A stretch of 64,000 nucleotides of DNA from NCBI GenBank assembly GCA_030530145.1, contig JAUMVN010000003.1, positions 23,037-87,036 on the forward strand, read 5' to 3'. This document shows positions 8,843-62,075 of this stretch, piece after piece. This stretch comes from Coriobacteriia bacterium (GTDB taxonomy: Bacteria; Actinomycetota; Coriobacteriia; Coriobacteriales; Atopobiaceae). The position numbers and the translations under genes are program-made. The notes below the pieces were generated by a model. It worked only from the letters and a program-made list of their open reading frames with translations. It searched no databases and had not been told where the DNA came from. Each line of letters begins with the position of its first letter. The stretch's first letter is position 1.

Positions 8843-8882
8843 CAATGCCCCCTTCGGCGAAAAGCCGCAAGGGGGCATTTCT
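8843..8882. terminator. Terminator-like hairpin after pknB; copy 1 of a perfect 40-bp direct repeat
   Basis: CAATGCCCCCTTCGGCGAAAAGCCGCAAGGGGGCATTTCT, with stem AATGCCCCCTT/AAGGGGGCATT followed by T-rich sequence; identical copy at 10671-10710. Confidence 0.85.
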
Positions 8883-8920
8883 TTATCGCTATCGAGCAGC
8901 AAAGGGGGCTGGAGCGAGCC

Positions 8921-10228
8921 CTAAACCAACCTCCTCAGCGTCCTGCTGCAATTCTCGGCTATCTCTATTTTCATTGGCTCGCCAACCTCATGAGCTCCGG
9001 GAAAACCAGCAGCCAGCGCATGGTCAACCTCAGCCTCGACCGCCGGCGGGATCATCTCCGCCATAGTCCTGAACCGGCCTACCAGCATGTCTGCGTTTAA
9101 GCCGATTTCGCCAAGGCCGCAGTTGTCCACCATCTTCTCAACCTGCTCGGCACCCACGTGGCCAAAGCGGTTCTCGCCGCCGATGGACAACGCCGCGCGA
9201 AGAGGCTTCCTCGGACGCGGGCTCAGGCTCTGGTATGCAGCGATCGAGGCCACATCATAGAGGGGCGCCAGCCTGATGTCTCCCACGGATGGGTAAACCA
9301 GGGAATGGTTCTTTGCGTGAGCGTCTGTCGCGCCTATTAAATAGTTGAAGAATAGATACAGAATGAATCGATAGGCGTTCGATCGACTCGCCGCACCCGT
9401 GGAACGGAGCAAACTGATTATCCTCGGCGTGTTTGGCCCTCCCTGGTCGGCGTACTTGCACAGAGGCGAGACGCCAAGAGCCTGGCACAAGTCTTCTTGA
9501 TGGACCCGCTCTACACCCTCTTCATTTCTGACGCGGTCATACCGCTCCACAACAATAGCCCACTCATCGCCAAAACGCTCGAAAGACGTATGGGCGACAG
9601 GCATTCCGATGGACTCTGCAATGCGCATCGAGAGGTACTCAACGAGAGCCTGGTTCTCCAAACCGGAGACCCCGGGCTTGAGAATATGCGTGGTCGGTGA
9701 GGAACCCTCGCACCGATACCAACACCCGTCGATTCGGCAGAGAGCAATCTTAGCCTGGCAACCGCCAAGCGACCAGCGCCCTTCAGATGCGTCTTTACCC
9801 GTCCATGCCGCGGCCGCGCTTGATTGCATGTCCGCGAGAAGCCGAGCGATGTCGAAGTCCGACAGCTCTACAAGAGCGCCCAATCCGCCCTTTTCCCACT
9901 TGTCGTCAAGCGGAAGAACCCGAACAGCGCCCGGGCAATCACCGCCGATGTGCGCCAAGAGCTTAAAAGGATTCTCGCCGGAAACGCCGTACTTGGCCCC
10001 GATGGCGGCCCGCGTCGCGCCCTCGTCCGGAAGAAGGCCCATGAGATAGGGGCGAACAATGCGGTCACCGTATTCAGCAAGGCCCACGGGCATCGAGAGC
10101 GACAAGGGAACCCCGTCGTAGCCGGAATCGTAGCGAAAGGCAAGGGCACCGGTGGATGCCTGCGACAAGATGCCGCAGCGGTTCTGACCAATATAAACCG
10201 CAAGCTCGGAGATGTGGCGAGCGCTCAT
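8921..10228 (-). CDS. hipA: HipA-family Ser/Thr kinase toxin (copy 1)
   Basis: HipA N-terminal couple domain (LSLSMP..YLMGLLPD), WSLGGCQAK, THILKPG, HQEDLCQ, DAHAKNHS, LAPLYD. Confidence 0.92.
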   Translation of the reverse strand: MSARHISELAVYIGQNRCGILSQASTGALAFRYDSGYDGVPLSLSMPVGLAEYGDRIVRPYLMGLLPDEGATRAAIGAKYGVSGENPFKLLAHIGGDCPGAVRVLPLDDKWEKGGLGALVELSDFDIARLLADMQSSAAAAWTGKDASEGRWSLGGCQAKIALCRIDGCWYRCEGSSPTTHILKPGVSGLENQALVEYLSMRIAESIGMPVAHTSFERFGDEWAIVVERYDRVRNEEGVERVHQEDLCQALGVSPLCKYADQGGPNTPRIISLLRSTGAASRSNAYRFILYLFFNYLIGATDAHAKNHSLVYPSVGDIRLAPLYDVASIAAYQSLSPRPRKPLRAALSIGGENRFGHVGAEQVEKMVDNCGLGEIGLNADMLVGRFRTMAEMIPPAVEAEVDHALAAGFPGAHEVGEPMKIEIAENCSRTLRRLV

Positions 10229-10551
10229 TTTACCTCCCCCTCAAGGCTCCACACGTCGCCGAGACGGTCCCATTTGGGAGCGAAAACGTCGGCGCCTCGA
10301 CCCGCGGCGGCAGTTTGACCAGGCGTAGGCGAAGCTCCGTCATCCAATGAGACGACCAGGCCAAGCGCCGCCGTGACTCGGAGGAAACCGGCAAGGCCGA
10401 GGTTCTCGTTCTCGCCCTGTTCAAACGCAAACAGTGTCCTGGGGCTAACCTTTGCGAGCCTGGAAAGCTCCGCCCGCGAAATACCCTGATCCTCTCGCAC
10501 CCTACGAACAATGCTGCCTGCTTGAACAGGTTGCGTGACCTGGGTTTTCAT
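10225..10551 (-). CDS. hipB: HipB-like Xre/Cro HTH antitoxin (copy 1)
   Basis: Start MKTQVTQ at 10551; IVRRVREDQGISRAELSRLAKVSPRTLFAFEQG HTH; 4-bp overlap with hipA start. Confidence 0.85.
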   Translation of the reverse strand: MKTQVTQPVQAGSIVRRVREDQGISRAELSRLAKVSPRTLFAFEQGENENLGLAGFLRVTAALGLVVSLDDGASPTPGQTAAAGRGADVFAPKWDRLGDVWSLEGEVK

Positions 10552-10591
10552 GACATCCCTTCTTTTGCAATCGCAATATCTTGCTTTATGC

Positions 10592-10614
10592 ATTATATTG
10601 CGTTACGCAGTATA
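10592..10614 (-). promoter_or_regulatory. Putative hipBA promoter -10 box with an overlapping palindromic operator
   Basis: TATAAT on the minus strand at 10592-10597, overlapped by the imperfect palindrome TATATTGCGTTACGCAGTATA (10594-10614). Confidence 0.5.
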
Positions 10615-10670
10615 TTACGAGCTAAATGCACCGGACACAACAACCCAGCAACCGACAACCAATCGAACGA

Positions 10671-10710
10671 CAATGCCCCCTTCGGCGAAAAGCCGCAAGG
10701 GGGCATTTCT
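10671..10710. repeat. Copy 2 of the perfect 40-bp direct repeat flanking hipBA-1
   Basis: Base-for-base identical to 8843-8882; about 25 bp upstream also similar (CAGCAACCG..ATCGAACG). Confidence 0.92.
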
Positions 10711-10774
10711 ATGCCGCCTATACTGGAACGGTCGCAAATAAACCGCAGCTCGCAACCAGTGAGAGGACGTTCTC

Positions 10775-11983: not shown

Positions 11984-11992
11984 CCCGTCCCC

Positions 11993-12135
11993 AAGTTCGG
12001 AAGCCCTCTCAAGTTCGGAAGGCTTCCAAACTCAAACAGACACGCGAGGATTTGTAAAACCGCAGGTAAACAAGGTGCGCCCCTCGGGTTCGGAAGCCTT
12101 CCGAAGTTTGGAAGCCTTCCGAACCCGAGGGGCGC
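11993..12135. repeat. Palindromic repeat family A, copy 1 (four GTTCGGAAGCCTTCCGAAC-like units)
   Basis: Perfect 20-bp inverted repeat 12077-12096/12116-12135; the unit recurs at 19231-19360. Confidence 0.85.
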
Positions 12136-12174
12136 TGGGGGAACAGAACAGGGCAAGAGGACCGTTGCCGGCCG

Positions 12175-13332: not shown

Positions 13333-13365
13333 CGCAATACCTCGATTCGCTGCTTGGTTTGGCCG

Positions 13366-19230: not shown

Positions 19231-19360
19231 CCGAGTTCGGAAGCCTACCAAACTCGTAGGAGTTTCTCGGTCGTCTTATGTCAAGGCCTCTACCTGCGAA
19301 TATATAAGCAGAAACTAAACTTCGGAAGCCTTCTGAAGTTTGGAAGCCTTCCGAACTCGG
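19231..19360. repeat. Palindromic repeat family A, copy 2
   Basis: Perfect 13-bp terminal inverted repeat CCGAGTTCGGAAG/CTTCCGAACTCGG; three TTCGGAAGCCTTCC-type units. Confidence 0.85.
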
Positions 19361-19371
19361 GACGGAGACGG

Positions 19372-22280: not shown

Positions 22281-22410
22281 TCCCCTGCCGACAGCAACGG
22301 GCCTGTTGTGTACGCCTACGGAGGTACACAACAGGCCCGTTTTCGTCTCTCGGCGGCTAAGCGCCCGAGTTCTGTACGTCTTCACACGTACAGAACACCG
22401 CTCTAAGCGC
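22281..22410 (+). repeat. Palindromic repeat family B, copy 1 (two hairpins)
   Basis: Perfect 17-bp stem ACGGGCCTGTTGTGTAC/GTACACAACAGGCCCGT and 11-bp stem GTTCTGTACGT/ACGTACAGAAC; direct copy at 23953-24080. Confidence 0.88.
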
Positions 22411-22483
22411 CTTGACCCGGTTCCCGCCAGCTCATCTCCGCCAAACAAGAGCTCTCTCGGAAGCACATCCTTTCGAGCGGGTT

Positions 22484-22554
22484 TTCTAACCATTATTCTC
22501 CCCATGATGGTTAGGGTGGTTAGCTAATGGTTAGAATGGTTAACAAACGGTTAG
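22484..22554. repeat. Array of GGTTAG-type hexamers immediately upstream of the AlbA gene
   Basis: Direct copies at 22508, 22517, 22528, 22537, 22548 (spacing 9/11/9/11) and one inverted copy at 22486-22492. Confidence 0.75.
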
Positions 22555-22567
22555 AAAGGTGGATGAG

Positions 22568-23952: not shown

Positions 23953-24080
23953 CCCTTGCCGACAGCAAACGGGCCTGTTATGTACGTCTTCGGAGGTACA
24001 CAACAGGCTCGTTTTCGTTTCTCAACGGCCAAATGCTCGAGTTCTGTACGCCTTCGCACGTGCAGAACTCCGCTCCAAGC
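23953..24080 (+). repeat. Palindromic repeat family B, copy 2
   Basis: Colinear, diverged direct copy of 22281-22410 that retains both hairpins. Confidence 0.88.
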
Positions 24081-24518: not shown

Positions 24519-24522
24519 TGTC

Positions 24523-24598: not shown

Positions 24599-24734
24599 AT
24601 GGATGATTAGTTTAGCACGTGGACCCCTATAGGTCATCGATTAGTCAAGCGCGGGGATCAGGCCACTCAAAAGTAAAGGCCGAGAGCAAGATTACGCGCT
24701 CTGTCCGTCATTTCATACCCTTGATAACAGCTAG

Positions 24735-24867
24735 GTCTGACTTTTCACACTTTAAAATAGGACTGTCTAAGTGGCAAAGTAGGTCAACACTGCATTTTCC
24801 CAGGTAAACAGCTTATGGATTGAACAGCTACTCAATGTAGCCAATTTTAAAGTGTGAAAAGTCAGAC
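24735..24867. repeat. MITE-like element (family C) with a perfect 24-bp inverted repeat
   Basis: GTCTGACTTTTCACACTTTAAAAT (24735-24758) and its exact reverse complement (24844-24867); 85-bp AT-rich spacer. Confidence 0.85.
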
Positions 24868-25021
24868 TTTGTTCGTTCCCAGTCCCACGTGATCGGCACA
24901 CACGCAGCCAACCCCCGGCACAACCCTTTGCAAAACGCCGCCGCGTCCCCCACGGCAAAGAAAAACCCGCCGGGGCGCTCTGCCGCGGCGGGTCTCGTTT
25001 CGCTATGAAGAAGGACTTCCC

Positions 25022-30723: not shown

Positions 30724-30801
30724 TGCGAATCCCCTCTCTTTGATTGCGCGTTCCAGTATACCCGCGGCCAGCGCGGGGCCGCAGGCGGCGCGCGGGATGG
30801 G

Positions 30802-30923
30802 CTCGAGGTGGTACCTCGTACACCACCTCGGCCGATTTTCTTGGCAGTTTCGCGCCACCTCGGCGAGAATCGCCTCCAGGTGGCGCCACCTCGAGGGCAA
30901 CACCACCTGGAGGCACCACCTCG
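30802..30923 (+). repeat. Repeat family D, copy 1 (~120 bp, about eight CCACCTCG/CGAGGTGG motifs)
   Basis: Core GCGATTTTCTTGGCAGTTTCGC(A/G)CCACCTCGGCGAGAA..GCCTCCAGGTGGCGCCACCTCGAGGGCAACACCACCT is shared with four other copies. Confidence 0.92.
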
Positions 30924-30936
30924 CCGGGCAACAGCG

Positions 30937-32148
30937 CTACGCCAACGCCCGCCCCGAAACGATGCGACAGACCCCCTCGGTGCTGGAAATCTCCTCAAGC
31001 ACGTCGATGATCTGGTCCGACTGGAAGAACTCGCCGCGACGCCGGTTCCCCATCGGGCGCAGCACGCCGTACTCAACGGCCCTTCTTACCAGGGAAAGAG
31101 CGGCGCGGGGAGTAATTCCGAGGCGCTTGGCCAGGTAGTCGATGCTCACCACGGGCTGCTCGACCAGCACGGCGGGCAGGCGATGGATGCTCGACCCCTT
31201 CCGCTCGGTGAACCTGCGGCCCCATTCCTCGACGACCGCATCGACCCGCATCGCCGTCAGGTTCCCCACGACGACCGCCAGCTCAAGCGCATCAACCAGA
31301 CGCTCGATAACGCTTACGGGATTCCCCTGCTGATACTCCGTGATGGCCGCCATGTACGCGTCGACATCGTGAAGCAAGCCCGCCGACACCGGAAGCGTCG
31401 TCTGGCTCAACACACCCTCGTCGCGCAGGATCTTGTGCAGCAGAACGCGTCCGGTCCTTCCGTTCCCATCGATAAAAGGATGAATCGTCTCAAGCTGAGC
31501 ATGAGCTATCGCCGCCTTCACAATGGGGTCGACGTCATCCCGCCCGGCGAATTCAACCAGATCGTCAAGGTAGCCGCGCACTCGTGAGCTCCGGGGCGGC
31601 ACGTAGGCGGCGTCATGGGGGCTGTATGACGATCCGCCCACCCAGACTTGCTCGTCTCTGAGCTCGCCGCCGAAGCTTCCCTCGGCGCCATTGATAAGCG
31701 CAGCATGGATTCCCAGGATGCTGTCGACGGTAAGAGGAGCGCTCAGGGCCAGGGCTTTTCTCATCGCCTCGATATTGCCGACGATGAGCTTTGCGTTGTG
31801 CGGGGCATCGGGCGAGACCTCGGCTAAGGCCACGTTCCGCGCGCTGGAAGTGAGGCTCTCGATCTGGGAGCTCGCGGAAGATTCGCTTCTGAGCAGCATG
31901 GCGGGCAAGGCATAGCCGCGCGCCTTCTGCTCGGTGTCGAAGCGCGAGAGCTTGACGAGGAGCTCGGAGATTCGGGCGCCGAGCGCGGCGGGCACAACGA
32001 GGGTCCTGTCCGAGATGTAGAGAGGGACCGCAGCTTCATACGTTGAGCCGATCTTTCGCCGCTGGGTCTTCGAGATGTAGGGAAGAAGGTCAGGGTCGGA
32101 GACCCAAGGCAGCGTTTCAGACCCAATCGGGGGCCATTGAGCAGTCAT
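30937..32148 (-). CDS. Fic-family protein with C-terminal HTH
   Basis: Canonical HPFIDGNGRTGR; N-terminal SSASSQIE segment where the inhibitory helix usually lies; start MTAQW at 32148 after GGAGG. Confidence 0.92.
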   Translation of the reverse strand: MTAQWPPIGSETLPWVSDPDLLPYISKTQRRKIGSTYEAAVPLYISDRTLVVPAALGARISELLVKLSRFDTEQKARGYALPAMLLRSESSASSQIESLTSSARNVALAEVSPDAPHNAKLIVGNIEAMRKALALSAPLTVDSILGIHAALINGAEGSFGGELRDEQVWVGGSSYSPHDAAYVPPRSSRVRGYLDDLVEFAGRDDVDPIVKAAIAHAQLETIHPFIDGNGRTGRVLLHKILRDEGVLSQTTLPVSAGLLHDVDAYMAAITEYQQGNPVSVIERLVDALELAVVVGNLTAMRVDAVVEEWGRRFTERKGSSIHRLPAVLVEQPVVSIDYLAKRLGITPRAALSLVRRAVEYGVLRPMGNRRRGEFFQSDQIIDVLEEISSTEGVCRIVSGRALA

Positions 32149-32164: not shown

Positions 32165-32245
32165 TGCAATTTCGCTTCCGATTAGTATAGCTAACGGAAG
32201 TGAATTGCATTTCACTTCCGTTAGTGCGGGCACATCGGAAGCAAA
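32165..32245. promoter_or_regulatory. Four-copy operator-like array upstream of fic
   Basis: TTCGCTTCCGATTAG / CTAACGGAAGTGAA / TTCACTTCCGTTAG / CATCGGAAGCAAA in alternating orientation. Confidence 0.65.
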
Positions 32246-34667: not shown

Positions 34668-34805
34668 GCTCGAAGTGGTGTTTGGTCCGAGGTGGTGCGC
34701 GCGGCGCCACCTCGAGCGATTTTCTTGGCAGTTTCGCACCACCTCGGCGAGAAATGCCTCCAGGTGGCGCCACCTCGAGGGCAACACCACCTCGAGGCAC
34801 CGCCG
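34668..34805 (+). repeat. Repeat family D, copy 2
   Basis: Same core and orientation as copy 1; ends 13 bp from the hipA-2 stop. Confidence 0.92.
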
Positions 34806-34817
34806 CGCACCGCTCCG

Positions 34818-36347: not shown

Positions 36348-36391
36348 GGGGAATTTGCGGTTATCCTGCGTCTGCCCCGTCGGTAGACAGG

Positions 36392-36511
36392 CCGAGGTGG
36401 TGCCGTGCGCGCCGCCTCGGGCGATTTTCTTGGCAGTTTCGCACCACCTCGGCGAGAAATGCCTCCAGGTGGCGCCACCTCGAGGGCAACGCCACCTGGA
36501 GGCACCACCTC
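36392..36511 (+). repeat. Repeat family D, copy 3
   Basis: Same core; abuts the adhesin-2 terminator. Confidence 0.92.
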
Positions 36512-36582
36512 AACGCACGAAAAAGCCGCCCCGGCTCAATTGAGCTCGGGGCGGCTGGCGCGCAGGCGGTTTCCGCAGCTAC

Positions 36583-40827: not shown

Positions 40828-41149
40828 GCGACCACTCCCAACGTTTACTACGTGTATGCAGCGTTTATAGAACCCGACCGAATTTCGGCAGGATTCATCC
40901 AGTGAGACAAAGGTATTGTCGCAGAGGTTGAGTTGCAGGGGGATGAAGGTTGGTTGAATGTTGGTCGAGGGGGTACGTCTTAACTTGAGCCGAGCTGAAA
41001 CCGCGAGCCGCTAGATGCTAGCCTGAAGGAAATTCTGCTTGCTTTTCTGATATTTCATCAGATAACAGTCTTCACAGGTTCTTCACAGTTAGCGGTAAAT
41101 TAGGGCAAATCAGTGCGCCCGGGGTACAGAGTCTTCGGCCACCGCCACG

Positions 41150-41271
41150 CTCGAGGTGGTGCGCGCGACACCACCTCGAGCGATTTTCTTGACAGTTTCG
41201 CACCACCTCGGCGAGAAACGCCTCCAGGTGGCGCCACCTCGAGGGCAGCACCACCTGGAGGCACCACCTCG
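41150..41271 (+). repeat. Repeat family D, copy 4
   Basis: Perfect 12-bp stems CTCGAGGTGGTG/CACCACCTCGAG and GCCTCCAGGTGG/CCACCTGGAGGC; abuts the adhesin-3 terminator. Confidence 0.92.
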
Positions 41272-41341
41272 ACGCATGAAACAGCCGCCCCGGGCTCGGA
41301 GAGCTCGGGGCGACCGGCGCGCGGGAGATTATCCGCAGCGT

Positions 41342-43342
41342 TTACTTCTTGCGGCGGATCCTGGAAGCGGCGACCCCGAGGATGCCGGTGCCGGCGATGG
41401 CTGCGATAGCCTCGCTGGCAAGAAGCGCGTCGCCGGTCTTCGGCGTGGCGCCCTTCTTGGTTTTCTTCGTGGCGGTCTTGTTGGAGTCGTCCTTACCGGA
41501 GTCGTCCTTCTTGCCCTCGTTCTTCTTCGTGCCGGTATAGGTGTTGGTCACGGTGAGGGTGCCCGAGCCGGTGACGGCATCGCTGTAGGCGGTGGTGTAG
41601 TTGGGCACAGCATCCTCGACAACGGACCAGGTGAGCTGGCCCACGCCGGCGGGGACGGTGACGGTCTTGGTCCAGTTGTCGCCCGCAGTGAGCTGGAAGG
41701 CCTCGCCGTAGTTCTGGCCGTTCTTCTTCAGCTGGACGGTAACGGAGGCGGGAAGCTGGGCGTCGCCGGTGTTCTTCCACTCCTTGGTCACGGTGACGGT
41801 GGCGACGGGGACCTTGATGGTCGGCTCCTCGTAGCCATCAGTACCTTTGTACCTGTCGACCTCCTCGTTATTCTTCTTTGCGACGACGTCATAGGACAGC
41901 TTGGTGCCGTCGGGATCGTTGGAGGGCAACTCGGTCTCCGCGCCGGCAGCCGCTGCGGCGTCGTAAGCATTCTGGTTCGGCTTAACGGTAAAGGTCATCT
42001 TGTAGGTGACGCCGTCCTCGAGCTCACCTTCGCCCGAGAGGTCCCAAGTGATGGTCTTCCCGCTCACAGTAGCCTTGGGAGCACCGTCCCAGGTGGTAGC
42101 CACGCCATCGACGACCTTCTCGTAGCGGACGTCGGTCACGTCGGCAAAGTCGACGTAGTCAGAAAGCTGGTCGGTAATCTTCACGTTCTCGTAGGAGGCG
42201 GAGTTCGTCACGAGGTTGGCAATCTTGGCGAACGCGTTCTTGAGGGTCCCCTCATCGTAGCCGTCGACCTCGTTGTTGCCCTCGTAGTAGGTTCCGTTGA
42301 TATCGGAAGCGAACTTCTTCATCTCGGTCGGGTCGGTCGAGACGTTCACCAGGAGCATCTGAACCGAGGAATCGATCTTCTGAGCCTCGGCCAATGCGGA
42401 CGCGTAGTTACGCCCAAGCTTGTCAGAACTGCCGGTGCCGTACTTACCGGTCGAGAATGCCCAACGGTCGTCACTGCCATGAATAGCGTCGTCGTAGCCG
42501 TGATCGTGACTGTCCCCCCAGGGATTACCCTGGACGAAGCCATTGACGCTGGTACGCAACGTGGGAAGACCGTCGGAGACAAAGACGATGTACTTCTTCG
42601 CGCCATCTCGACCGTCTTCGGTAAGCTTCTTGTTGGCGGCAGCGAGGGCATCTTCCCAGTTCGTTCCCCCGTTGGCGGTAAGTTGGTCGACCGCGGCCTT
42701 GAACTCGTCCGAATCGCCACCCTTGTAGACCACATCATCCGCCTGCGCCTCGGTCGAATATGTGACCAGCGAGACCTGAACGTCGCTCTTCTCGTTCTCA
42801 ATCAGCTGGTCGCCCAGCGTGTTGAGAGCCTTCTTTACGACCTCATTCCACGTCGTTTCGTAGAAGACTGGATCGCGGCCATCACTCTTGCATCGGTCTA
42901 GATAGTCCATTTTTTGACCGTTAGACATCTTGTAATACCACGTGTCTTTGTCGCAGCTTCTTATCTTTCCGTAATAGACCTCAACATAATCGTTGATACC
43001 CTGGTTAATGAACCCGATTACGCCCATGTACGACTTCGACGTATCTGGCGAGGAAACCTCGCGTATGGGCCGACTCATCGAGCCGGAGACGTCCTGCACC
43101 ACGACGACGTCGGCCTTCGTCGAGGTGGTGGAAGCCTCGACGGCTCCCTTGACCGTAAGGGACAGATCGTAGGTGCCGTCGCCGTTGTCGGTGATCGTCT
43201 TCTCGTGCTCAGGAACCTGATCGTTGATGGCCGCGAGCGCAGTCGACGGCGCGACAGCCGCAAGGGCCAAAAGCGCGCTAAGCGCTACCGTGAAGAGCGC
43301 GACCCCCCGAAGCCTCTTTCCAGCATTAGCGAACGACTTCAT
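41342..43342 (-). CDS. Sortase-anchored adhesin 3: vWA domain, CnaB-like domain, TPKTGD anchor (short paralog of adhesin 2)
   Basis: Start MKSFANAGK at 43342 after AAGGAG; DVSGS, TNWEDAL, VFVSDG; shares N-terminal KTITDNGDGTYDL and the C-terminal modules with adhesin 2. Confidence 0.88.
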   Translation of the reverse strand: MKSFANAGKRLRGVALFTVALSALLALAAVAPSTALAAINDQVPEHEKTITDNGDGTYDLSLTVKGAVEASTTSTKADVVVVQDVSGSMSRPIREVSSPDTSKSYMGVIGFINQGINDYVEVYYGKIRSCDKDTWYYKMSNGQKMDYLDRCKSDGRDPVFYETTWNEVVKKALNTLGDQLIENEKSDVQVSLVTYSTEAQADDVVYKGGDSDEFKAAVDQLTANGGTNWEDALAAANKKLTEDGRDGAKKYIVFVSDGLPTLRTSVNGFVQGNPWGDSHDHGYDDAIHGSDDRWAFSTGKYGTGSSDKLGRNYASALAEAQKIDSSVQMLLVNVSTDPTEMKKFASDINGTYYEGNNEVDGYDEGTLKNAFAKIANLVTNSASYENVKITDQLSDYVDFADVTDVRYEKVVDGVATTWDGAPKATVSGKTITWDLSGEGELEDGVTYKMTFTVKPNQNAYDAAAAAGAETELPSNDPDGTKLSYDVVAKKNNEEVDRYKGTDGYEEPTIKVPVATVTVTKEWKNTGDAQLPASVTVQLKKNGQNYGEAFQLTAGDNWTKTVTVPAGVGQLTWSVVEDAVPNYTTAYSDAVTGSGTLTVTNTYTGTKKNEGKKDDSGKDDSNKTATKKTKKGATPKTGDALLASEAIAAIAGTGILGVAASRIRRKK

Positions 43343-43630: not shown

Positions 43631-43756
43631 CCAGGTGGTGTATAGCTCGAGGTGGTGCGCGCGACACCACCTCGGGCGATTTTCTTGGCAGTTTCGCGCC
43701 ACCTCGGCGAGAAACGCCTCCAGGTGTCACCACCTCGAGGGCAACACCACCTCGAG
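43631..43756 (+). repeat. Repeat family D, copy 5
   Basis: Same core and orientation; lies just past the purB terminator. Confidence 0.92.
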
Positions 43757-43844
43757 CGCACCGGGCGTACGCGGCAAGAAAAACGCCGCCGACCCGAGCG
43801 GGGACGGCGGCGCGAACAGCGCTTCTTACCAGTGAATCGCGACC

Positions 43845-48251: not shown

Positions 48252-48277
48252 CCCGTTACTGCCCGCATGCGGCCGTG

Positions 48278-48503
48278 CTGCAAGGTTTTGCTGTTCGTGC
48301 GACGTTTGGGGGGACTCGCTGCAAGGTTTTGCCCTTCGTGCAGCGTAATTTCCATCGCGAAAGCTGTATTTCAGGGCTGGCAGATTCGCTTACCAGGGAT
48401 TTTTCTGTTCTTGTGGGCGCGGCCGCTGGTTTTTACGCTGCACGAAGGGCAAAACCTTGCAGACGATGCCGGGTAACGTCGCACGAACGACAAAACCTTG
48501 CAG
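48278..48503. repeat. Nested palindromic element (family E): four ~30-bp units forming two concentric inverted repeats
   Basis: Inner perfect 30-bp inverted repeat 48319-48348/48433-48462; outer 27/29 inverted repeat 48278-48306/48475-48503. Confidence 0.9.
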
Positions 48504-48660
48504 AGCCGCCCCCCGGATAGCACCATACCGAGGGATTTGGGCCGGCATCAAGCCCCGCCCGCGTTTCAAGCCGCCACGCAACCTTGACCGCCGGTCGAAC
48601 GCACAGCGCCTGCCGTTTGACTTATGATTCATCAGTCAAAGCGTCGAGCAGGAGCTATGC

Positions 48661-50124: not shown

Positions 50125-50209
50125 TCGGCTCCGGCCGGCGCGGCGCGCGCCGCGGGCTGCGGGTCGCGGGCCGGATGCCGCTCCACGTGCGCTGCCCACA
50201 AACTCGGCC

Positions 50210-50366
50210 GAGTACCAATCCGACCTTCTCAGCCGCTTCCGAACTCCGACGAATACCAATCGCACGTGCGGATTCAGGCCAGATTCGGCCGAGTACCAAT
50301 CGAGAACCGCGCTCGCCTTGGTATTCGCCCCAATCTCCGCGCAGGCAGAAATCCCGATTGGTATTC
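50210..50366. repeat. Repeat family F: GA(G/A)TACCAATC units
   Basis: Direct copies at 50210, 50251, 50291 (40-41 bp period) and inverted copies at 50318-50326 and 50356-50366. Confidence 0.75.
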
Positions 50367-50454
50367 GAAGCCATAAAAAAGCGCCCGCCTCAGGCTGGGA
50401 AGCCCCAACCCGAGACGGGCGCCGAACACCAAAGCAATAACCCGCGAAGAAGCC

Positions 50455-51822: not shown

Positions 51823-51921
51823 TGAGCTCCCCTTTCGTCGTAATCGTCCAAGTTAGGTTACCGCACCGGGCACGTGCTCGCCACGCATAGCAACCAGGAC
51901 GCAATCCAGCAGGCGCGAACA

Positions 51922-52014
51922 GCGCTTCTTTGTGAATAACGCGCAAGTTTGTCCTTAACTTCACGATTGAAACGCTTCACTCGACAAACTTGTGCGCTAT
52001 TTGCAAAGAAGCGC
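51922..52014. repeat. Family G hairpin, left flank of the nuclease-fold gene
   Basis: 28/32 inverted repeat 51922-51953/51983-52014, ending 1 bp from the stop codon. Confidence 0.85.
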
Positions 52015-52015
52015 C

Positions 52016-53170
52016 TCAGACCGCGTACCTAAAAAGACGCGCCTTGAGCCACTCGGGGGTTCGCGAGGCCTCTCTCTCCAATTCCCGGGCGATTGCCGCC
52101 GCCTCCGCCCAGGGAAGCATCGACCACAGAAGCTCCTGTCGCTTACTCGCAGCGCCCGGGCTCGCCAGATAGTCCCTGGCAAACGAAGGCACCTCGACCC
52201 CGGTCAGCTCGACACAGCCCAATGCCTCGAGCACCAGCGTGTCCAAGCCGCCTTGCTCAAAGAGGTCCTCCGAGCAAACCGGCAGGATCACCCTGCCCAT
52301 GGCAAGAAGCTCGCGGTTCCTGCGCAGGTCATCGACGTATTTAGCACGGGCAGCGCGAACAGCGTCACGTTGCGCGGCGTCGTCTGGGGCGGCCGCCACC
52401 ATCTCCAAATCGTAGTGGCCGCGACCGTCATAGTTAAAGCCCACCGGCGCTACGGCCAACTCGATATCCGGCACGCGCGAGGTCGGGCAACCAAGGTCGA
52501 TGAGCTGCGCGGGATTTACGTATCGCGTGTTCAGGCGCAACTCGCCGAGGCCATAGCCGCCAACGGGCAACGGCAGCGTGAGCATCGTCGCCAACACCGC
52601 TTCCATGGGCGACCACGCGTTGTCGGCCACATACCCCAAGGCCCGAATCGCATCTTCCTTACCGGGCAGGTATGTGCATGCGTCGATGAACGCGCGGATT
52701 CTCTCGACCGAGGTCGCGGGAGGAAGGCCGAAGGCCACGTCCCCCATCATGGGGTCGCGCGGGTCGCGGCCGAAGCTACCGCACAGCTCATACCCCAACA
52801 GCACCAACACGGGAAAGCGCAAATGCCCGACCAAGTCGACGAAGAGCAGCTCAGGGCACGGTATCGCGATGCTGCCGCCAACGTCCACAAACGACCCCGG
52901 CGCGATTCCGGCGCCGTAGACGGTGTTTCGAACGAACCCGGCACGCAGCCTATGGACGGAATCGGGCACTGCCACATCCAAAGGATGTTCCTTGCTCGGC
53001 CGTTCGGTCATCAACAGCGCTTCCAGCGGCATCATGCCCGCCGTCCAACGCTTGCGCGGCGACGGGTCCGGGACCGGCGCCGCGGTCCTTCTCTCCAAGG
53101 CCGCAGGATCGCGGCGCCGCACGTCGCGCAGGACCTTTAAGGCGCACAAACCGCACACCGCGAGCTGCAT
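52016..53170 (-). CDS. AbiEi-like N-terminal region fused to a DUF559/Vsr-like PD-(D/E)XK nuclease-fold domain
   Basis: Start MQLAV at 53170 after GGAGG; SPMEAVL..LP..GGYGL, RVPD, GFNYDGRGH, DDLRRNRELLAMG match the DUF559 pattern SxxE..D..EyDGxxH..DxxR. Confidence 0.65.
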   Translation of the reverse strand: MQLAVCGLCALKVLRDVRRRDPAALERRTAAPVPDPSPRKRWTAGMMPLEALLMTERPSKEHPLDVAVPDSVHRLRAGFVRNTVYGAGIAPGSFVDVGGSIAIPCPELLFVDLVGHLRFPVLVLLGYELCGSFGRDPRDPMMGDVAFGLPPATSVERIRAFIDACTYLPGKEDAIRALGYVADNAWSPMEAVLATMLTLPLPVGGYGLGELRLNTRYVNPAQLIDLGCPTSRVPDIELAVAPVGFNYDGRGHYDLEMVAAAPDDAAQRDAVRAARAKYVDDLRRNRELLAMGRVILPVCSEDLFEQGGLDTLVLEALGCVELTGVEVPSFARDYLASPGAASKRQELLWSMLPWAEAAAIARELEREASRTPEWLKARLFRYAV

Positions 53171-53190
53171 AGGCGCCCTCCAAAAAAAGA

Positions 53191-53257
53191 AATAACGCAC
53201 AAGTTCGTGCAAAGAAGCGCTTCTAAACACGCTCTAAGCATGAACTTGTGCGTTATT
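53191..53257. repeat. Family G hairpin, right flank
   Basis: 19/20 inverted repeat 53191-53210/53238-53257; shares AATAACGC(A/G)CAAGTT and GCAAAGAAGCGC with the left flank. Confidence 0.85.
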
Positions 53258-53294
53258 GGCCTAGCGAGAAACGCCGAACGGCTCGGCAGGCGCC

Positions 53295-54524: not shown

Positions 54525-54984
54525 TTTTGATTTCCTTTCGATTGGCTAATTGCGCGGAGACTGCGCGGTTAAGCAGGTTAATTACAGCAGAACACAACAC
54601 CCGTCGATGCCGGACGTTGCAGGGAATTCATCTAAGGGCAGGTTTGGTGCCGCCAGACAAAGAAGCGCAGCGCACGCGACATCGCGGGCTAGATTCGTCG
54701 GTTCTGGCGTCGGTTAAGGGGAGAAGAGAGGGCGATGGCCTCGTCAAGGCACGCAGATATAGCGCGGTAACTCTTCATTAGGCTTCTTTCGCCTCCCCTA
54801 AAGACTAGTGGCCCGCGATATGTGCGCGGGGCTGCAATCAACGAAACCGACTATAGGCCCGCGCGGGGTCGCCGCGCAACCCAAAACGCGGATTAATTTC
54901 GTTGAGAAACAATGGGAGCGGGCACTTTGAGAGGAAAGAAGAAAGGCCGCAACCGGATACCGGCTGCGGCCTACAAATTCGAGG

Positions 54985-55060
54985 TGGTGCGCCGTCAGGG
55001 TTTCGAACCCTGGACCTTGGGATTAAAAGTCCCCTGCTCTACCAGCTGAGCTAACGGCGC
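54985..55060 (-). tRNA. tRNA-Lys (anticodon TTT)
   Basis: Reverse complement GCGCCGTTAGCTCAGCTGGTAGAGCAGGGGACTTTTAATCCC...GGTTCGAAACC...GCGCACCA. Confidence 0.96.
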
Positions 55061-55093
55061 AAGCTCGTTGATTGTAGCACGAGGGCGCGGGGC

Positions 55094-56377
55094 CTACTCT
55101 TCCCAAACCCACTGGCCGTTGACGAAGACCGGGGTCTCGGCCCCATCGGCGGCGACGCCCCAGATGTTCAGGTCGTCGGAGCCGATCATGAAGTCGACGT
55201 GCGTCACGCTCTGGTTGACGCCGAGGGCAAGAAGCCCGTCTTTGTCCGTGTCCAGGCCGCCCTCGACGCACTCGGGGAAGCCGGTGCCGAGCGCCAGGTG
55301 ACAGCTCGCGTTCTCGTCGTAGAGCGTGTCGAAGAAGAGCGTCTTGCTCTGGCGGATCGGCGTGTTCTTGGACACGAGCGCGCACTCGCCCAGCCGGCAG
55401 CTGTTCTCATCGCGCTCGATGATGGTCCGCAGCACGTCTTTGCCCTGCTCGGCGTCGTACTCGACGACGCGGCCGCCCTCGAAGCACAGCCAGAAGTCGC
55501 GGACGATCTGCCCCGCGTGGACGAGCGGCATGGCCGAATGGACGATGCCCTCGGCGCGCATGCGGTCCGGAGACGTAAAGACCTCTTCGGTTGGGATGTT
55601 CGGGAAGAAGCTCGTGCCCGTGACCGTGCGGCCCGCGCCGCCGTCCCAGATGTGGCCCGCGGTGAGGCCGACGGTGAAGTCGGTGCCGTTGGAGGACTGG
55701 TAGCGCAGTGCATCGAAGTGGTGGCTGTTCAGGAAGCGCTTGGACTTCTCAAAGGACGCGTTGTGCGTCTCCCAGGCGCTCTCGGGGTCCTCGCCGTCCG
55801 CGCGGGACGTGGCCAGGATCAGGTTCCACAGGCGATACACCGCCTCGGCCTCGGAGAGCTCCGGGAAGATGTGCTTGGCCCAGGCGGCGACCGGAACGCC
55901 GGCGATGCACCAGACGTTGCGGCCGAAGTCCATGCCGTCACGGAACGACTTGCACTGGGTGTTGCGCGCGCGGGCGGCCGCCGCGGGCTTCGCCGGGTCG
56001 ATGCCCTTGAGGGCGGAGGGGTCCGACCCTTCCAGGAAGAGGAACGCCGCACCCGCCTCGGCGAGGCTGTTGAGCTGCTCGATCTTCCACGAGGGCGTCT
56101 GCTCGAACCAGGAAGCTTCGACGTTCTCGTAGGTCAGGCGGCTGATGGCGTCGTCTGCCCAGATCACGGTCACGTGACCGGCTCCGGCACGGTAGGCCGC
56201 GGCGACGACGCGGCGCGCGAAGTCGGCGCGCTCGACGGGAGCCTGCAGCACGAGTTCCTGGCCGTGCTTGACGGCGACGCCCTTCTTTACCAGCAGATTC
56301 GCATAAAGGTCAAGTTGATCGGAGAGCGCGTCGGTGGCGATGCGGCACTCTTCGTCGGTCATGGGGATATGAGGCAT
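55094..56377 (-). CDS. M29-family aminopeptidase (AmpS/PepS-like)
   Basis: Start MPHIP at 56377; NIPTEEVFTSP, LGECALV, LYDENASCHLALG, HVDFMIG. Confidence 0.92.
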   Translation of the reverse strand: MPHIPMTDEECRIATDALSDQLDLYANLLVKKGVAVKHGQELVLQAPVERADFARRVVAAAYRAGAGHVTVIWADDAISRLTYENVEASWFEQTPSWKIEQLNSLAEAGAAFLFLEGSDPSALKGIDPAKPAAAARARNTQCKSFRDGMDFGRNVWCIAGVPVAAWAKHIFPELSEAEAVYRLWNLILATSRADGEDPESAWETHNASFEKSKRFLNSHHFDALRYQSSNGTDFTVGLTAGHIWDGGAGRTVTGTSFFPNIPTEEVFTSPDRMRAEGIVHSAMPLVHAGQIVRDFWLCFEGGRVVEYDAEQGKDVLRTIIERDENSCRLGECALVSKNTPIRQSKTLFFDTLYDENASCHLALGTGFPECVEGGLDTDKDGLLALGVNQSVTHVDFMIGSDDLNIWGVAADGAETPVFVNGQWVWEE

Positions 56378-56582
56378 ACAAAAATCCTTTCGGGGTCGGC
56401 GTGCCTTCTTCCGTATACCCAGCGAAGGCGAGGAGCCGGGGTAAAAAGGGCCAAAGGCCGCATAAGGCACGGCAGGCGCAGCAGCGAGCGGCAAGAAGGG
56501 CCGGGCGTCCATCAAACCGCCATCGGCAAACTGCCAGCAGAGCGCTTTTGGCCGGTGCGCTTGTGTTAGTATGAAATCTCAC

Positions 56583-56657
56583 GCGGGCATCGCCAAGTGG
56601 TAAGGCATCAGCTTCCCAAGCTGACATCCGCGGGTTCGAGTCCCGTTGCCCGCTCCA
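56583..56657 (+). tRNA. tRNA-Gly (anticodon CCC)
   Basis: GCGGGCA acceptor, TCAGC-TT-CCC-AA-GCTGA anticodon arm, TTCGAGT T-loop, CCA; terminator hairpin follows at about 56667-56698. Confidence 0.96.
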
Positions 56658-56858
56658 GAAATGTATGCGCCGGCTTCCTCACGGAGGCCGGCGTTTTTCG
56701 TGCGAGAACCCCTCCAGCCCGAGCTGATTTGCCTGCGCGGCCGCTCTAACGGGCGCCACAACGGGCACGCTCGGCCGGGCATAAGAAAAGGGGCCGCGCC
56801 TCGCAACGCGGCCCCTTTCGGTTTGAAATCGTGCTCAGGACGCCCTTCTTTGCAGCTC

Positions 56859-59771: not shown

Positions 59772-59922
59772 ATGTAGAGTCCTTTTGCGGAGTCAGTACC
59801 TGTGAAGAGCTGTGTGCATACAATCAAAAGAGTATACGTCTAGAGTCCCGTGTTCACTGATTCCGTATCCGTTTGTCGGCGTAATGCCCTTATTTTTAGT
59901 TGAGGCGACGCCGGGGGCACCG

Positions 59923-60951
59923 ATGCGGGCACCGAGCCCGAAAGGTCACGAAGTGGCAAGAAACACACTCGGTCTTTCCGAGGACGAGCGGCGCGCCCAG
60001 CGCGCGTGCGAGCTGGCGGCCTTCTTTATGAACGCCCTGGCGCCCCAACCGACATCGGCCGTCTACGAGCGGTTTTACGCCGAGCTCGAGCCCGCCAACC
60101 AGCGCAAGACCTTCGGGCGCGACCGCGAGCTTCTTGCCAGCCTCGGCGTCGTCATCGTCGACGCGGGCTGGGGCGACGGCGAGAAGGTCTGGCGCGTGGA
60201 CGAGGAGGTCTCCTTTGCGAGCGGCGCCGAGCTCGGCGCGCTCGAGGCCATCGCGCTCGACGTCGCGTGCCAGCCGCTGCTCGAGGACGGCGGCTTCGCG
60301 CACGGCGAGGCCCTGCGCCACGCCCTTGCGAAGATCGACCGGACCTTCGGCGACGCCGATCAGGCGGTCGAGACCAGCGCCCCCGAGCAGGGGCGCGCGG
60401 TGAGGGCGCTTCTCGACTGCGCCCAGCAAGGGCTGGTCGCGGCTGTCGCCTATCGCGACGCGCAGGGGCGCCAGTCCAAGCGAGAGTTCGCCCCCTACGG
60501 GACGTTCTCCTGCCGCAACAAGGGCTATATCGTCGGCGATTTCCTGGACGGGGACGAGGCGGCGCGGCGGACGCTGCGGCTCGACCGCGTGGCGCAGGCA
60601 CGGCCGACCGCCCGGACGTTCCGCGCGCCCGACGATTTCTGCATCGACGACTACCTGCTGCTTCCTTTCCAGATCGGGAAGACGACCTGCCGCGCGAGCT
60701 TCTTCGTGCCCGATGCTCAGGAGGAGGCGCTACGGGCGGCGAGCCTCGGGAAAGGGGATTTTCGCAGGGCGCGCAGCAGCGGCAACGGGGCTGAAGGCGA
60801 CCTCACCTGGACCGTCGAGGTGAGCAGCGTCGGCGACGCCGCATGCTGGGCGGTCGCGCAGGGGATCGTCCCACTCTCGCCGAGCGAGCTCGCCGACGCG
60901 TGGCGAGCGTGCCTGAACTCGAACTTGAAGGGGGTCGCGATCGATGGCTAG
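59923..60951 (+). CDS. WYL-domain transcription factor, PafB-like
   Basis: RKTFGRDRELLASLGV (PafB-type RDK..L..LG), YRDAQG...REFAPYG..GYIVG..RTLRLDRV WYL domain. GTG 59953 is an alternative start. Confidence 0.8.
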   Translation: MRAPSPKGHEVARNTLGLSEDERRAQRACELAAFFMNALAPQPTSAVYERFYAELEPANQRKTFGRDRELLASLGVVIVDAGWGDGEKVWRVDEEVSFASGAELGALEAIALDVACQPLLEDGGFAHGEALRHALAKIDRTFGDADQAVETSAPEQGRAVRALLDCAQQGLVAAVAYRDAQGRQSKREFAPYGTFSCRNKGYIVGDFLDGDEAARRTLRLDRVAQARPTARTFRAPDDFCIDDYLLLPFQIGKTTCRASFFVPDAQEEALRAASLGKGDFRRARSSGNGAEGDLTWTVEVSSVGDAACWAVAQGIVPLSPSELADAWRACLNSNLKGVAIDG

Positions 60952-61876
60952 CAAGAAGAGCGCGCAGGGCAGGCGCGGGGCATCCGAGGTCACCCGCAAC
61001 CTGCTCGACCTCACCTCGGCACTCAGCGAGCCGGGCGACTATGTGAGCGAGGAGGCTATCCGCAAGCGCTTCGGATGCAGCGCCGAGCAGGCGGCCAAGC
61101 TCTACTCCATGCTCGTCAACGTGACCTCCAGCGGCGACGGCATCGTCGCTTATGAGGACGCCGACGGGCTCGCCATCGACCGCGGGGGCGCGGGCGGCCG
61201 CGCGCTCAGGCTCGACGCGACCGAGACGTTTGCGCTGGTCTGCGCCCTGCAGCGACTCGGCATCCCCGAGGGCCATCCGACCCGCGAGAAGCTGCAGGGG
61301 GCGGTGGCCGCCGGAGGCGTGGACAAGGGGCTTCTTTCCCGCGTGCTCGCACAGGCGCCCGACGAGGGGACGGCAACGGCGCTCGGAGCCTGTTCCGAGG
61401 CCATTGCGTCGCGCGCCGACATCGCGTGCGACTACCGCAAGCCCGGAGCGACCGCCGCCGAGGCGCGCGTCGTGCGGCCCGTCTCGCTCACGCAGACGGA
61501 TGGGACCTGGTACCTGAACTGCGTCGACGTGGAGCGCGGCGGAAAGAGGACCTTCCGCCTGGACCGCATGTCCGAGACGCGCTGCGTCCCGCGCGCGGCG
61601 GGCGCGGCAGACGAGGGGCGCGAGGGCGGCCGCATGGTCGAGCTCGTGTTCGCCGACCCGCGGTTCCTCGACCTCTTCGTGTGGCCGGGCCTCAAGTTGG
61701 AGAGCGGCGGCGAGCGGCGCGGGACCATCCCCTACTTCGGCGGCATGTGGCTGCCGCGCCAGATCGCCGGGTGCGGAGGCGCCGTCACGACCGACGACCC
61801 CGAGCTCTGCTCCCTTATCCACTCGTATTTGAACGATTTGGTCGATTTAGGGACGAAGGCTGCGCCTCTCGAATGA
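60944..61876 (+). CDS. WYL-domain protein, PafC-like
   Basis: Overlaps the upstream stop; RVVRPVSL..TWYLNC..RTFRLDRM; C-terminal WLPRQIAGCGG resembling WCX. Confidence 0.82.
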   Translation: MASKKSAQGRRGASEVTRNLLDLTSALSEPGDYVSEEAIRKRFGCSAEQAAKLYSMLVNVTSSGDGIVAYEDADGLAIDRGGAGGRALRLDATETFALVCALQRLGIPEGHPTREKLQGAVAAGGVDKGLLSRVLAQAPDEGTATALGACSEAIASRADIACDYRKPGATAAEARVVRPVSLTQTDGTWYLNCVDVERGGKRTFRLDRMSETRCVPRAAGAADEGREGGRMVELVFADPRFLDLFVWPGLKLESGGERRGTIPYFGGMWLPRQIAGCGGAVTTDDPELCSLIHSYLNDLVDLGTKAAPLE

Positions 61877-61919
61877 GAATTCGTTGCGCGCCGTCCTTTT
61901 GCAACCCTCCGCGGTCCCG

Positions 61920-62075
61920 CGTGCAACTAATCGACGACTTTGCGGCAAACTTTGAGCCTCGAGGGCCTCTAAAAGGGCCTCCGGGGGCTCAATTGAAGCG
62001 ATTTCCCACGGTCTTGGCCCTCTCTAGGGCCCTAATAGCCTGAAACCTGCCGCAAAGTCGTCGATTAGTTGCACG
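61920..62075. repeat. MITE-like element (family H) with a perfect 28-bp inverted repeat
   Basis: CGTGCAACTAATCGACGACTTTGCGGCA (61920-61947) and its exact reverse complement (62048-62075); 100-bp spacer. Confidence 0.88.

Follow-up and report, generated by a model that had tools for sequence, protein, structure and literature searches.

The stretch of DNA considered here (the window) comprises 64,000 nucleotides of a Coriobacteriia bacterium of the Atopobiaceae (assembly GCA_030530145.1, contig JAUMVN010000003.1) and corresponds to C26:23037-87036 of the source genome, designated G000 (2.47 Mb, 57 contigs, 65% GC). Its core blocks are FHA-PknB, a phosphotransferase system (PTS) operon, purC with a two-component system (purC-TCS), purB, argH and argG. 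Among them lie genes whose labels were confirmed by Pfam, namely two hipBA pairs, a Fic gene, an AlbA_2/Schlafen gene, two class-3 lipases and two WYL regulators, and three LPXTG-type adhesins with VWA, Cna_B, FctA and SHIRT domains. The intergenic regions hold palindromic repeats, which are the subject of this work: nine dispersed hairpin families are represented by 16 loci, where the density in the genome as a whole would predict 9.2 (Poisson p 0.026), and two local terminator duplications are found besides. Most of the families of this genome are protein-specific, that is, a particular single-copy gene is bracketed by copies of that family, and this one-to-one bracketing is conserved across genera.

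Repeats were sought by all-versus-all BLAST of 1374 intergenic regions, clustering of the hits, construction of nhmmer profiles and a rescan of the genome with a family membership threshold of E<1e-4, the genes of G000 having been called by GC3 with a home-made caller. This yielded about 355 loci (42.6 kb, 1.7% of the 2.47 Mb) in about 25 families of 4-40 copies each, nearly all of them strong hairpins, and all window elements except the two local duplications are members of these genome-wide families. Folded as single-stranded DNA and compared with dinucleotide shuffles, the window elements gave z-scores of -5 to -9, the exceptions being family F (-0.45) and a fragment of family f5 at 62582-62660 (-3.0). 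The hallmark of repetitive extragenic palindromic (REP) sequences and REPINs is a short palindromic unit outside genes, dispersed in many copies that are often arranged as inverted doublets, and the repeats of G000 are of this kind, with E, f2 and f5 built as multi-unit inverted doublets. Variable spacer lengths made an axis-based analysis of conservation uninformative for the GGAAGCC, f1 and f9 families. Known structured RNAs were ruled out as an explanation, since Rfam covariance models recovered only three tRNAs in the window, matching no repeat, and produced only sub-threshold generic hairpin (miRNA precursor) matches on 20 representative repeat loci. A sequence-only reading of the window had listed several unrelated palindromic families, whose letters are retained here, and had placed them in a genome-wide ecosystem. 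Inverted- and direct-repeat scans and reading of the intergenic regions found all the listed repeats at or near where they had been placed, and de novo discovery recovered the ecosystem; the dispersed families are indeed unrelated, but two of the listed "families" turned out to be local direct duplications at hipBA-1 and AlbA_2.

The comparisons drew on 18 congeneric species genomes and covered the syntenic regions of five, the entire G010 chromosome and many sites of G008, the nearest relative (~88% nucleotide identity to G000). The bracketed arrangement is represented in the window by a unit inserted between argH and argG:

51921-52016, no strand assigned: G1, a AATAACGCRCAAGTT hairpin of family f22 (32-nucleotide stem, z -8.0), directly after the stop codon of the bracketed gene
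52016-53230, minus strand: Fam1 gene (404 aa), putative cognate enzyme of the G hairpins, without a Pfam or NCBIfam match
53189-53264, no strand assigned: G2, a AATAACGCRCAAGTT hairpin of family f22 (20-nucleotide stem, z -8.0), upstream of the bracketed gene

Family f22 has five loci in G000. The G unit is missing from G015, G005 and G010, which have empty sites of 70-109 bp; G008, G009 and G017 have both the gene and its hairpins.

The gene of this unit is one of 15 Fam1 genes found in G000 by tblastn and then by a hidden Markov model (HMM), its 14 paralogs included, with products of about 350-440 aa. Nearly every gene has a flanking family of its own: f22 (G), f6 (H), f1 (C, two genes), f8, f19, f17, f14, f7 and f20, the other members being flanked by f2 (a frameshifted gene), by f9 (E, one side only) or by two unnamed repeats, while one member has no repeat at all. 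The cognate gene of f6 is C40:5754, with f6 on both sides; f1 has two, C3:52 and C25:38693, the latter again with its family on either side. Scanning the whole genome for genes enclosed by copies of one family also revealed Fam2, three mutually homologous proteins of ~340 aa bracketed by f16, f15 and f12. When the 15 Fam1 genes, the three Fam2 genes and a single Y1 transposase gene (see below) were submitted to a strict same-family-both-sides test, 11 of the 19 passed, compared with 10 of 2000 other genes (odds ratio (OR) 274, p 4.6e-19), in agreement with the protein-specific elements that the sequence-only reading had proposed.

The bracketing extends beyond G000. Public data contain at least 298 unnamed homologs of the window Fam1 protein, and each of the three that were inspected, from Olsenella uli, Thermophilibacter sp. 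and a metagenome contig, lies between hairpins of 76-86 nucleotides. Two of them have G-like arms, (A/G)ATAAYGCGC, both genes lying in the holA-rpsT spacer, which is where the Fam1 gene and its hairpins are inserted in Olsenella uli and Thermophilibacter sp. Among the congeners, G006 and G007 have orthologs of the H-cognate gene (78-81% aa identity) that are bracketed by H-type arms, as established by reading their flanks directly, cross-genome BLAST being too insensitive for arms of ~30 nucleotides; in G008, G005 and G010 the ortholog and the H arms are both absent. G010 has seven Fam1 genes, one of which adjoins f1, the sole Fam1-linked family of G000 that G010 retains, and several others have flanking repeats of their own.

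One pair in G000 belongs to a known type. The sole Y1_Tnp gene of the genome (C52:19442-20257, 48 bits vs a cut-off of 23) has inverted f5 copies on both sides, an arrangement also found in G008. Its product scores 57.9 bits against the NCBIfam REP_Tyr_transpos equivalog NF047646, below the cut-off of 80, and is therefore a distant relative of the REP-associated tyrosine transposases (RAYT), nearer to the TIRYT type. A single-copy Y1/HUH gene flanked by its own repeats is found for f5 only, and there is no second Y1 gene in G000, which rules out one RAYT serving all families. As a separate observation, a toxin-type gene encoding a HipA_C-like kinase of 446 aa with an N-terminal helix-turn-helix (C26:145249-146589) has f12 repeats on both sides.

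The remaining dispersed elements of the window, apart from family D, are the following:

11991-12128, no strand assigned: copy of the GTTCGGAAGCC family (the GGAAGCC family, label B; nhmmer 87 bits), between convergent hydrolase and amidohydrolase genes
19231-19361, no strand assigned: second copy of the GTTCGGAAGCC family (nhmmer 112 bits), located after deoR and ahead of the PTS operon
24733-24875, no strand assigned: element of family f1 (earlier C), with 27-nucleotide arms and a 79-nucleotide spacer (nhmmer 74 bits, z -5.2)
48276-48509, no strand assigned: element of family f9 (earlier E), a nested palindrome (nhmmer 159 bits) between two lipase genes
50208-50368, no strand assigned: family f25 (earlier F), five GTACCAATCG-type units, weakly palindromic (z -0.45)
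61918-62078, no strand assigned: element of family f6 (earlier H), with 60-nucleotide arms GTGCAAC..TTGCGGCAAA (z -9.1)
62582-62660, no strand assigned: fragment of family f5 (TTTGGGGACG units), the family flanking the sole Y1 (RAYT/TIRYT-like) transposase; absent from the earlier list

In G000 these families number ~29 loci (GTTCGGAAGCC family), ~38 loci (f1), ~15 loci (f9) and ~26 arm loci (f6). The f9 element consists of two forward and two reverse units of ~30 nucleotides and is REPIN-like, and no cognate gene was found for f25. A public bin labelled "Alloprevotella sp." (CAVJHQ01...) holds dozens of Atopobiaceae GTTCGGAAGCC repeat copies, and its label is probably wrong for that reason. 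The 106-aa gene that follows H (62175-62495, earlier called a "GG-leader peptide") has no Pfam or NCBIfam match; G008, which has no H here, conserves both this gene and its promoter region.

The presence of the elements varies among close relatives. At the orthologous sites of G008, the E, H and C elements are missing and F retains one unit only; the C element is also missing from the same site in G015 and G005. Common to G000 and G008 are one GGAAGCC copy (that at 19231-19361), the G unit, the f5 fragment and the D copy next to purB. G005 and G015 carry f2, f9, f10, f1 and a D-like element at other positions, G010 retains only f1, f3, f13 and f21, and the D family occurs in G000, G008 and G001 only. 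Since both presence and site differ among close species, the families must be mobile or rapidly turned over, and mostly young. Moreover, the same intergenic slots repeatedly hold different elements in different species: at the hydrolase-amidohydrolase site there is a GGAAGCC element in G000, f2 in G008 and G005 and plain terminators in G015 and G017; the pfkB-tRNA-Arg slot, which is the AlbA_2 site, holds an E element plus a DeoR gene in G015 and G005; and the holA-rpsT spacer behaves likewise. The empty-site junctions are not base-precise, because the intergenic flanks are too diverged in G015, G005 and G017 and, for E, H, C and F, in G008. An origin as miniature inverted-repeat transposable elements (MITEs) derived from insertion sequences (IS) was ruled out, the ISLre2-, IS3- and IS30-like contigs C35, C36 and C38 having unrelated ends. 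Another site is the tRNA-Lys region at 54860-55100, where G005 has an 8.3-kb insertion with a Phage_integrase-domain gene (G005:C3:45372-45917) and G010 one of 2.6 kb; it is a classical tRNA integration hotspot, empty in G000.

The repeats were said to lie nearly always at the borders of accessory genes. In 12 of the 14 repeat-bearing intergenic regions of the window, one or both flanking genes are indeed missing from G010; the two GGAAGCC copies, between conserved sugar-utilisation genes, do not conform. The accompanying claim that core blocks have no internal repeats holds in G000 for FHA-PknB and purC-TCS, although G005 has one repeat between purC and the kinase. Genome-wide, the intergenic regions of G000 were sorted by the adjacency of the homologs of their flanking genes in G010, and repeat presence was modelled by logistic regression with log net intergenic length and gene orientation as covariates. 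The enrichment, which had been expected to vanish under such control if the claim were wrong, persisted: the OR was 2.5 (p 3.5e-6) where one flank was absent and 3.5 (p 1e-6) where the adjacency was rearranged, compared with a non-significant 1.4 inside accessory regions. Convergent orientation itself had an OR of ~2, and the contrast between borders and conserved adjacencies was seen in each orientation stratum (OR 2.2, p 0.04; 3.1, p 8e-7; 2.9, p 0.06). The 2-3.5-fold excess of repeats at synteny breakpoints is thus real after control for length and orientation. It is not shared by all families. For four old, genus-wide families the share of loci in conserved adjacencies is that of the background (24/70, 34%, vs a 31% baseline), whereas the young ones are depleted there (38/244; old vs young OR 2.8, p 0.001).

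On balance, we consider it rather probable that the repeats are non-autonomous mobile hairpins of the REP/REPIN/MITE kind, organised as many independent pairs of a gene and a repeat family. The autonomous unit would be one gene placed between two copies of its own hairpin, the gene coming from Fam1, from Fam2 or from the RAYT/TIRYT-like Y1/HUH transposases, and the bracketed protein would bind and cut its own hairpin. The solitary hairpins (5-40 copies per family) would be derivatives spread in trans that settled mainly just after genes, in terminator space. The excess at borders would then reflect that young elements and new genes both gather in permissive, recently changed intergenic DNA, and the dispersed repeats could subsequently serve as substrates for homologous recombination, D (see below) being the clearest case.

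Several points weigh against this proposal. Neither the window Fam1 protein nor Fam2 has a Pfam or NCBIfam match above cut-off, and the best that a Fam1 paralog attained was 20.1 bits against REase_MTES_1575, below the cut-off of 38.2. A search with Foldseek using the AF2 model of the window Fam1 protein (pLDDT 86) found no significant structural neighbour, none having E<0.25: the best was an arenavirus PD-(D/E)XK cap-snatching nuclease (E 0.25), and Vsr (1vsr) gave a TMt of 0.47 with a probability of 0.25 over 117 columns. Fam1 and Fam2 show no relation detectable by hhalign, and the idea of a single superfamily was set aside. As to the pairs themselves, the Fam1 gene C26:161379 has f9 at its 3' end and thus on one side only, the f2-linked Fam1 gene is a frameshifted pseudogene, and a bracketed gene is lacking in ten families, among them GGAAGCC, D and F. 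Neither target-site duplications nor excision products were seen. Finally, the border enrichment relies on a single reference genome (G010) for the synteny classes and on a home-made gene caller; the GC3 proxy for accessory genes, for which the synteny with the complete G010 chromosome was substituted, had given an OR of only 1.0-1.5, weak and threshold-dependent. Regarding the Fam1 activity, a PDB sequence search gave nothing significant either. Within the family D255, D268 and H272 do not vary and E257 hardly varies, a pattern that is compatible with a PD-(D/E)XK/Vsr fold without proving it. A Vsr/PD-(D/E)XK-like C-terminal domain in the bracketed proteins is therefore only weakly indicated, and with fold and profile matches below significance "nuclease" must be taken as a lead and not as a finding.

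In another view, the bracketed genes do not encode mobilising enzymes but are defence or toxin-antitoxin (TA)-like genes or selfish homing-type nucleases, the hairpins are their own terminators or operators, and the dispersed copies spread otherwise, for example through host recombination or template switching. The position of the hairpins would suit it, the downstream one coinciding with the stop codon and the upstream one being close to the start, as would the lack of a detected transposase-like domain in the bracketed proteins. So would the arms of f3 and f13 hairpins, which evolve in concert and differ from copy to copy, indicating that palindromes can be shaped by host replication or repair, with a precedent in template switching (PMC7202029). 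However, regulatory sites are not expected to occur in 5-40 extra copies at unrelated loci for ~18 different genes, and the logic of a gene with its own repeats is established for RAYT/TIRYT (PMC3733652), one such pair being present in G000 itself. This explanation is regarded as improbable.

The sequence-only reading had favoured a different role, namely that the palindromes pre-exist as landing pads, serving as integration sites for defence, TA and surface-protein genes. In its favour can be counted the enrichment at gene-content borders, the re-occupation of the three slots described above by different elements across species, the D family (which delimits modules differing in number and order among G000, G008 and G001) and a similar hypothesis published for the dRS3/NIME arrays of Neisseria (PMC1797815). 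Nevertheless, the empty sites of the 13-kb D island, of the G unit and of E, H and C contain no element, and the excess at borders is displayed by the young families and not by the old, longest-resident ones, which argues against elements acting as pads for later gene arrivals. Furthermore, G000 has no integrase beyond two tyrosine recombinases (Phage_integrase-domain genes), probably XerC and XerD, both conserved throughout the six genomes searched. Landing pads in this general sense thus appear unlikely, and what stands of the proposal is essentially D, as a recombination junction.

The two cassettes for which repeats were also reported, hipBA-1 and AlbA_2, point in the same direction. The repeats are adjacent to these genes as claimed; they are, however, duplicated copies of unique resident terminators and not members of a dispersed family:

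8843-8882, plus strand: pknB terminator hairpin, left copy of the duplication flanking the hipBA-1 insert (similarity spans 8820-8890; z -5.6)
10671-10710, plus strand: pknB terminator, right copy of the duplication, a perfect 40-nucleotide copy of 8843-8882
22281-22440, plus strand: left copy of a direct duplication (~85% identity) on either side of the AlbA_2/Schlafen gene, a double-hairpin terminator region that follows pfkB
23955-24080, plus strand: double-hairpin duplication, right copy, nearest on its right side to the single G008 copy

The 40-nucleotide pknB terminator exists in only two copies in G000, both flanking hipBA-1, and the ~130-nucleotide double-hairpin duplication occurs only around the AlbA_2 gene. 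G015, G005 and G008 have no hipBA-1 and a single terminator copy at the empty site; similarly, G008 has no AlbA_2 cassette and one double-hairpin copy. The downstream flank of the 10671-10710 copy continues the ancestral sequence GCCGCCTATACT found in empty sites. In both cassettes the two flanking copies are mosaic, one side corresponding to the ancestral flank and the other being diverged, as expected if circular DNA with a homologous terminator region had integrated by a single crossover. The homology anchor expected under such a single-crossover view is the resident terminator and not a dispersed family. A terminator-duplicating cassette as a general property of hipBA was ruled out, the HipA-1 homologs in G002, G010 and G001 having no flanking direct repeats, a further argument against landing pads. 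Two arrays of small units were noticed beside these genes. Three CGCAATATATTGCG-type palindromic units of ~17 nucleotides (10572-10616) lie directly upstream of hipB-1 and are probably HipB operators rather than a mobile repeat, and five ATGGTTAG/ACGGTTAG units (22507-22560), resembling an iteron or operator array, immediately precede the AlbA_2/Schlafen-HATPase_c_4 gene.

Among the families, only D has the behaviour of a junction, with adhesin and hipBA modules being acquired, lost and reordered there. Five copies divide a 13-kb island of the window:

30797-30945, plus strand: D1, ~seven CACCACCTCG units, left end of the 13-kb island
34681-34824, plus strand: D2, between adhesin-1 and hipA-2
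36388-36534, plus strand: D3, between hipB-2 and the adhesin-2 terminator
41148-41296, plus strand: D4, between adhesin-2 and adhesin-3 (z -5.9)
43640-43787, plus strand: D5, right end of the island, adjoining the purB terminator

Each D copy is an array (about 120-145 nucleotides) of ~seven CACCACCTCG units, with sharp edges and a variable number of 17-nucleotide units at one end, that opens with a 12-7-12 inverted repeat, CTCGAGGTGGTG-N7-CACCACCTCGAG, and folds as several short hairpins. G000 has 22 copies, ~17 of which are solitary, in both orientations and mostly between convergent core genes, and none brackets a cognate gene. The island is absent from G015, G017, G009 and G010, and D is absent from these empty sites. 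Where D occurs, the copy directly beside purB is retained and the modules vary: purB-D-adhesin3-D-adhesin2-D-hipBA-D-adhesin1-Fic-D, with four modules, in G000; purB-D-hipBA-D-adhesin in G008, which has on another contig FctA adhesin-D-SHIRT adhesin+MBG protein-D; and purB-D-adhesin-D in G001. Given the aa identities between G000 and G008 (HipA-2 88%, adhesin 71%), the array must be ancestral and rearranged, not recently imported. The three adhesin genes of the window share a 127-nucleotide 3' block encoding the sorting signal (32326-32452, 36583-36709 and 41342-41468; 86-91% identical), which is followed by near-identical terminators, so that D, terminator and anchor-coding sequence together make up a shared block of ~320 bp with ~90% identity. 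With this block available, and only the two conserved recombinases in G000, neither of them near the D array, RecA-mediated excision and reinsertion between direct D copies would be the simplest mechanism. A near-perfect 17+17-nucleotide palindrome, CTAACGGAAGTGAATTG/CATTTCACTTCCGTTAG (32191-32224), located just upstream of Fic, between Fic and the adhesin-1 terminator, is unique in G000.

An integron was ruled out, since G000 has no IntI and D is neither confined to arrays nor a single long stem; D as the attC-like site of some integron-like, site-specific cassette system for adhesin and TA genes is very unlikely as well, for while the five co-oriented copies do split 13 kb into co-oriented modules, the hipBA module does occupy a different slot in G008 and the 12-7-12 inverted repeat does resemble a recombinase core site, there is no dedicated recombinase, the solitary copies lie in both orientations among core genes, the modules are diverged orthologs pointing to vertical inheritance and not to fresh capture, and the ~320-bp block provides ample homology for RecA.

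A distinct behaviour was found in f13, f3 and f21, families in which a conserved asymmetric core of 40-62 nucleotides sits at the apex of perfect arms of 19-45 nucleotides, the arms being unrelated between copies. Examples outside the window are:

C45:15252-15397, C37:48028-48169 and C17:45596-45714: hairpins of families f13/f3/f21

The f13 core was present in 11 of the 11 congeners searched, and in seven species the holA-rpsT spacer holds f13 with differing arms. At this site the arms of G000 and G008 are homologous but diverged, each pair remaining perfectly complementary, and the core is inverted; in G005 the spacer has no element, and the unique flank there is similar to the outer portion of one of the G000 arms. 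Template-switch correction of quasipalindromes has been documented (PMC7202029), and the f13 arms would be explained if they evolved in concert, or grew outward through template switching of that type during replication. The holA-rpsT spacer is a recurrent insertion hotspot, occupied by a Fam1 unit in Olsenella and Thermophilibacter and by f13, f3 or other hairpins in the congeners.

Taking these observations together, we give about even chances to a broader proposition: the Atopobiaceae would hold an undescribed class of autonomous elements, each made of one gene from two uncharacterised families (possibly structure-specific nucleases) and its cognate hairpins, with at least 18 pairs in a 2.5-Mb genome, each driving a MITE-like family, and with hundreds of homologs in gut metagenomes, in effect a non-HUH counterpart of REP/RAYT; the companion hairpins f3, f13 and f21 would have perfect, re-templated arms and a core able to flip. 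To our knowledge, REP/REPIN-RAYT systems are the only well-supported bacterial repeat families with an enzyme of their own that is inherited vertically, nearly all of the known cases being from Proteobacteria, and we know of no transposase for most bacterial hairpin repeats. In G000 a REP/RAYT-like logic would be realised many times over, with different unannotated proteins, in a gut actinomycetote. Such pairs would offer a testable entry into how hairpin repeats are made and spread, and a likely function for a large group of hypothetical proteins in gut metagenomes. That repeats mark places of gene-content change is hereby quantified in a new lineage, and the framing of variable adhesin and persistence (hipBA) modules by D bears on surface variation in gut commensals. 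In the literature, no paper was found on hairpin families paired with non-HUH proteins, nor on such repeats in Coriobacteriia.

Among known systems, integron attC sites and the Vibrio VCR resemble D in that co-oriented modules, TA genes included, are split by imperfect palindromes of ~120-150 nucleotides, but D has no IntI, attI or Pc, is found in solitary copies genome-wide and forms several short hairpins in place of one attC stem. The nearest precedent for variable surface-gene cassettes framed by repeats is offered by the NIME/dRS3 arrays and minimal mobile elements of Neisseria (PMC1797815): they too are intergenic arrays beside surface-protein genes, with alternative cassettes in syntenic slots, and have been proposed as recombination substrates. 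They differ in their unrelated sequences, in the phylum and in size, the 20-bp dRS3 contrasting with the ~120-nucleotide multi-unit array of D, and no phage recombinase is implicated here. With MITEs such as Correia/CREE, ERIC/IRU and RUP, the repeats of G000 share the 90-240 bp length, the terminal inverted repeats, the long stems, the intergenic position near gene ends and a presence that varies between close relatives; they have, in contrast, no evident target-site duplication and no parent DDE insertion sequence sharing their ends. The Vsr-fold/PD-(D/E)XK homing endonucleases, for example I-Bth0305I (PMC3239194), provide a possible analogy for a free-standing selfish nuclease gene that is polymorphic at a fixed site, although the Fam1 matches are below significance, the genes are not in an intron or intein setting, and such enzymes have no described repeat family associated with them.

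The nearest parallel is that of REPtrons and TIRtrons (Bertels & Rainey, PMC3116915, PMC3337134; Di Nocera et al., PMC3733652), in which a single-copy gene is likewise flanked by inverted copies of the repeat that it presumably mobilises, hairpins occurring singly or as doublets are scattered between unidirectional and convergent genes with a preference for positions after genes, and several independent families can coexist in one genome. Family f5 with the Y1 gene of C52 is a genuine instance, its flank motif GGGGACAC fitting the published TIRYT motif GGGGWSAS. The other pairs depart from this model, for at least 14 families of G000 have a bracketed gene that is not Y1/HUH but belongs to one of two unrelated, unannotated protein families with no detectable transposase domain, such non-Y1 genes number 18 in a 2.5-Mb genome, and the host belongs to the Actinomycetota, a phylum not mentioned in the text of PMC3733652. 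With a common architecture and different proteins, the hairpin and gene pairs of G000 look like an undescribed relative of the REP/RAYT systems.

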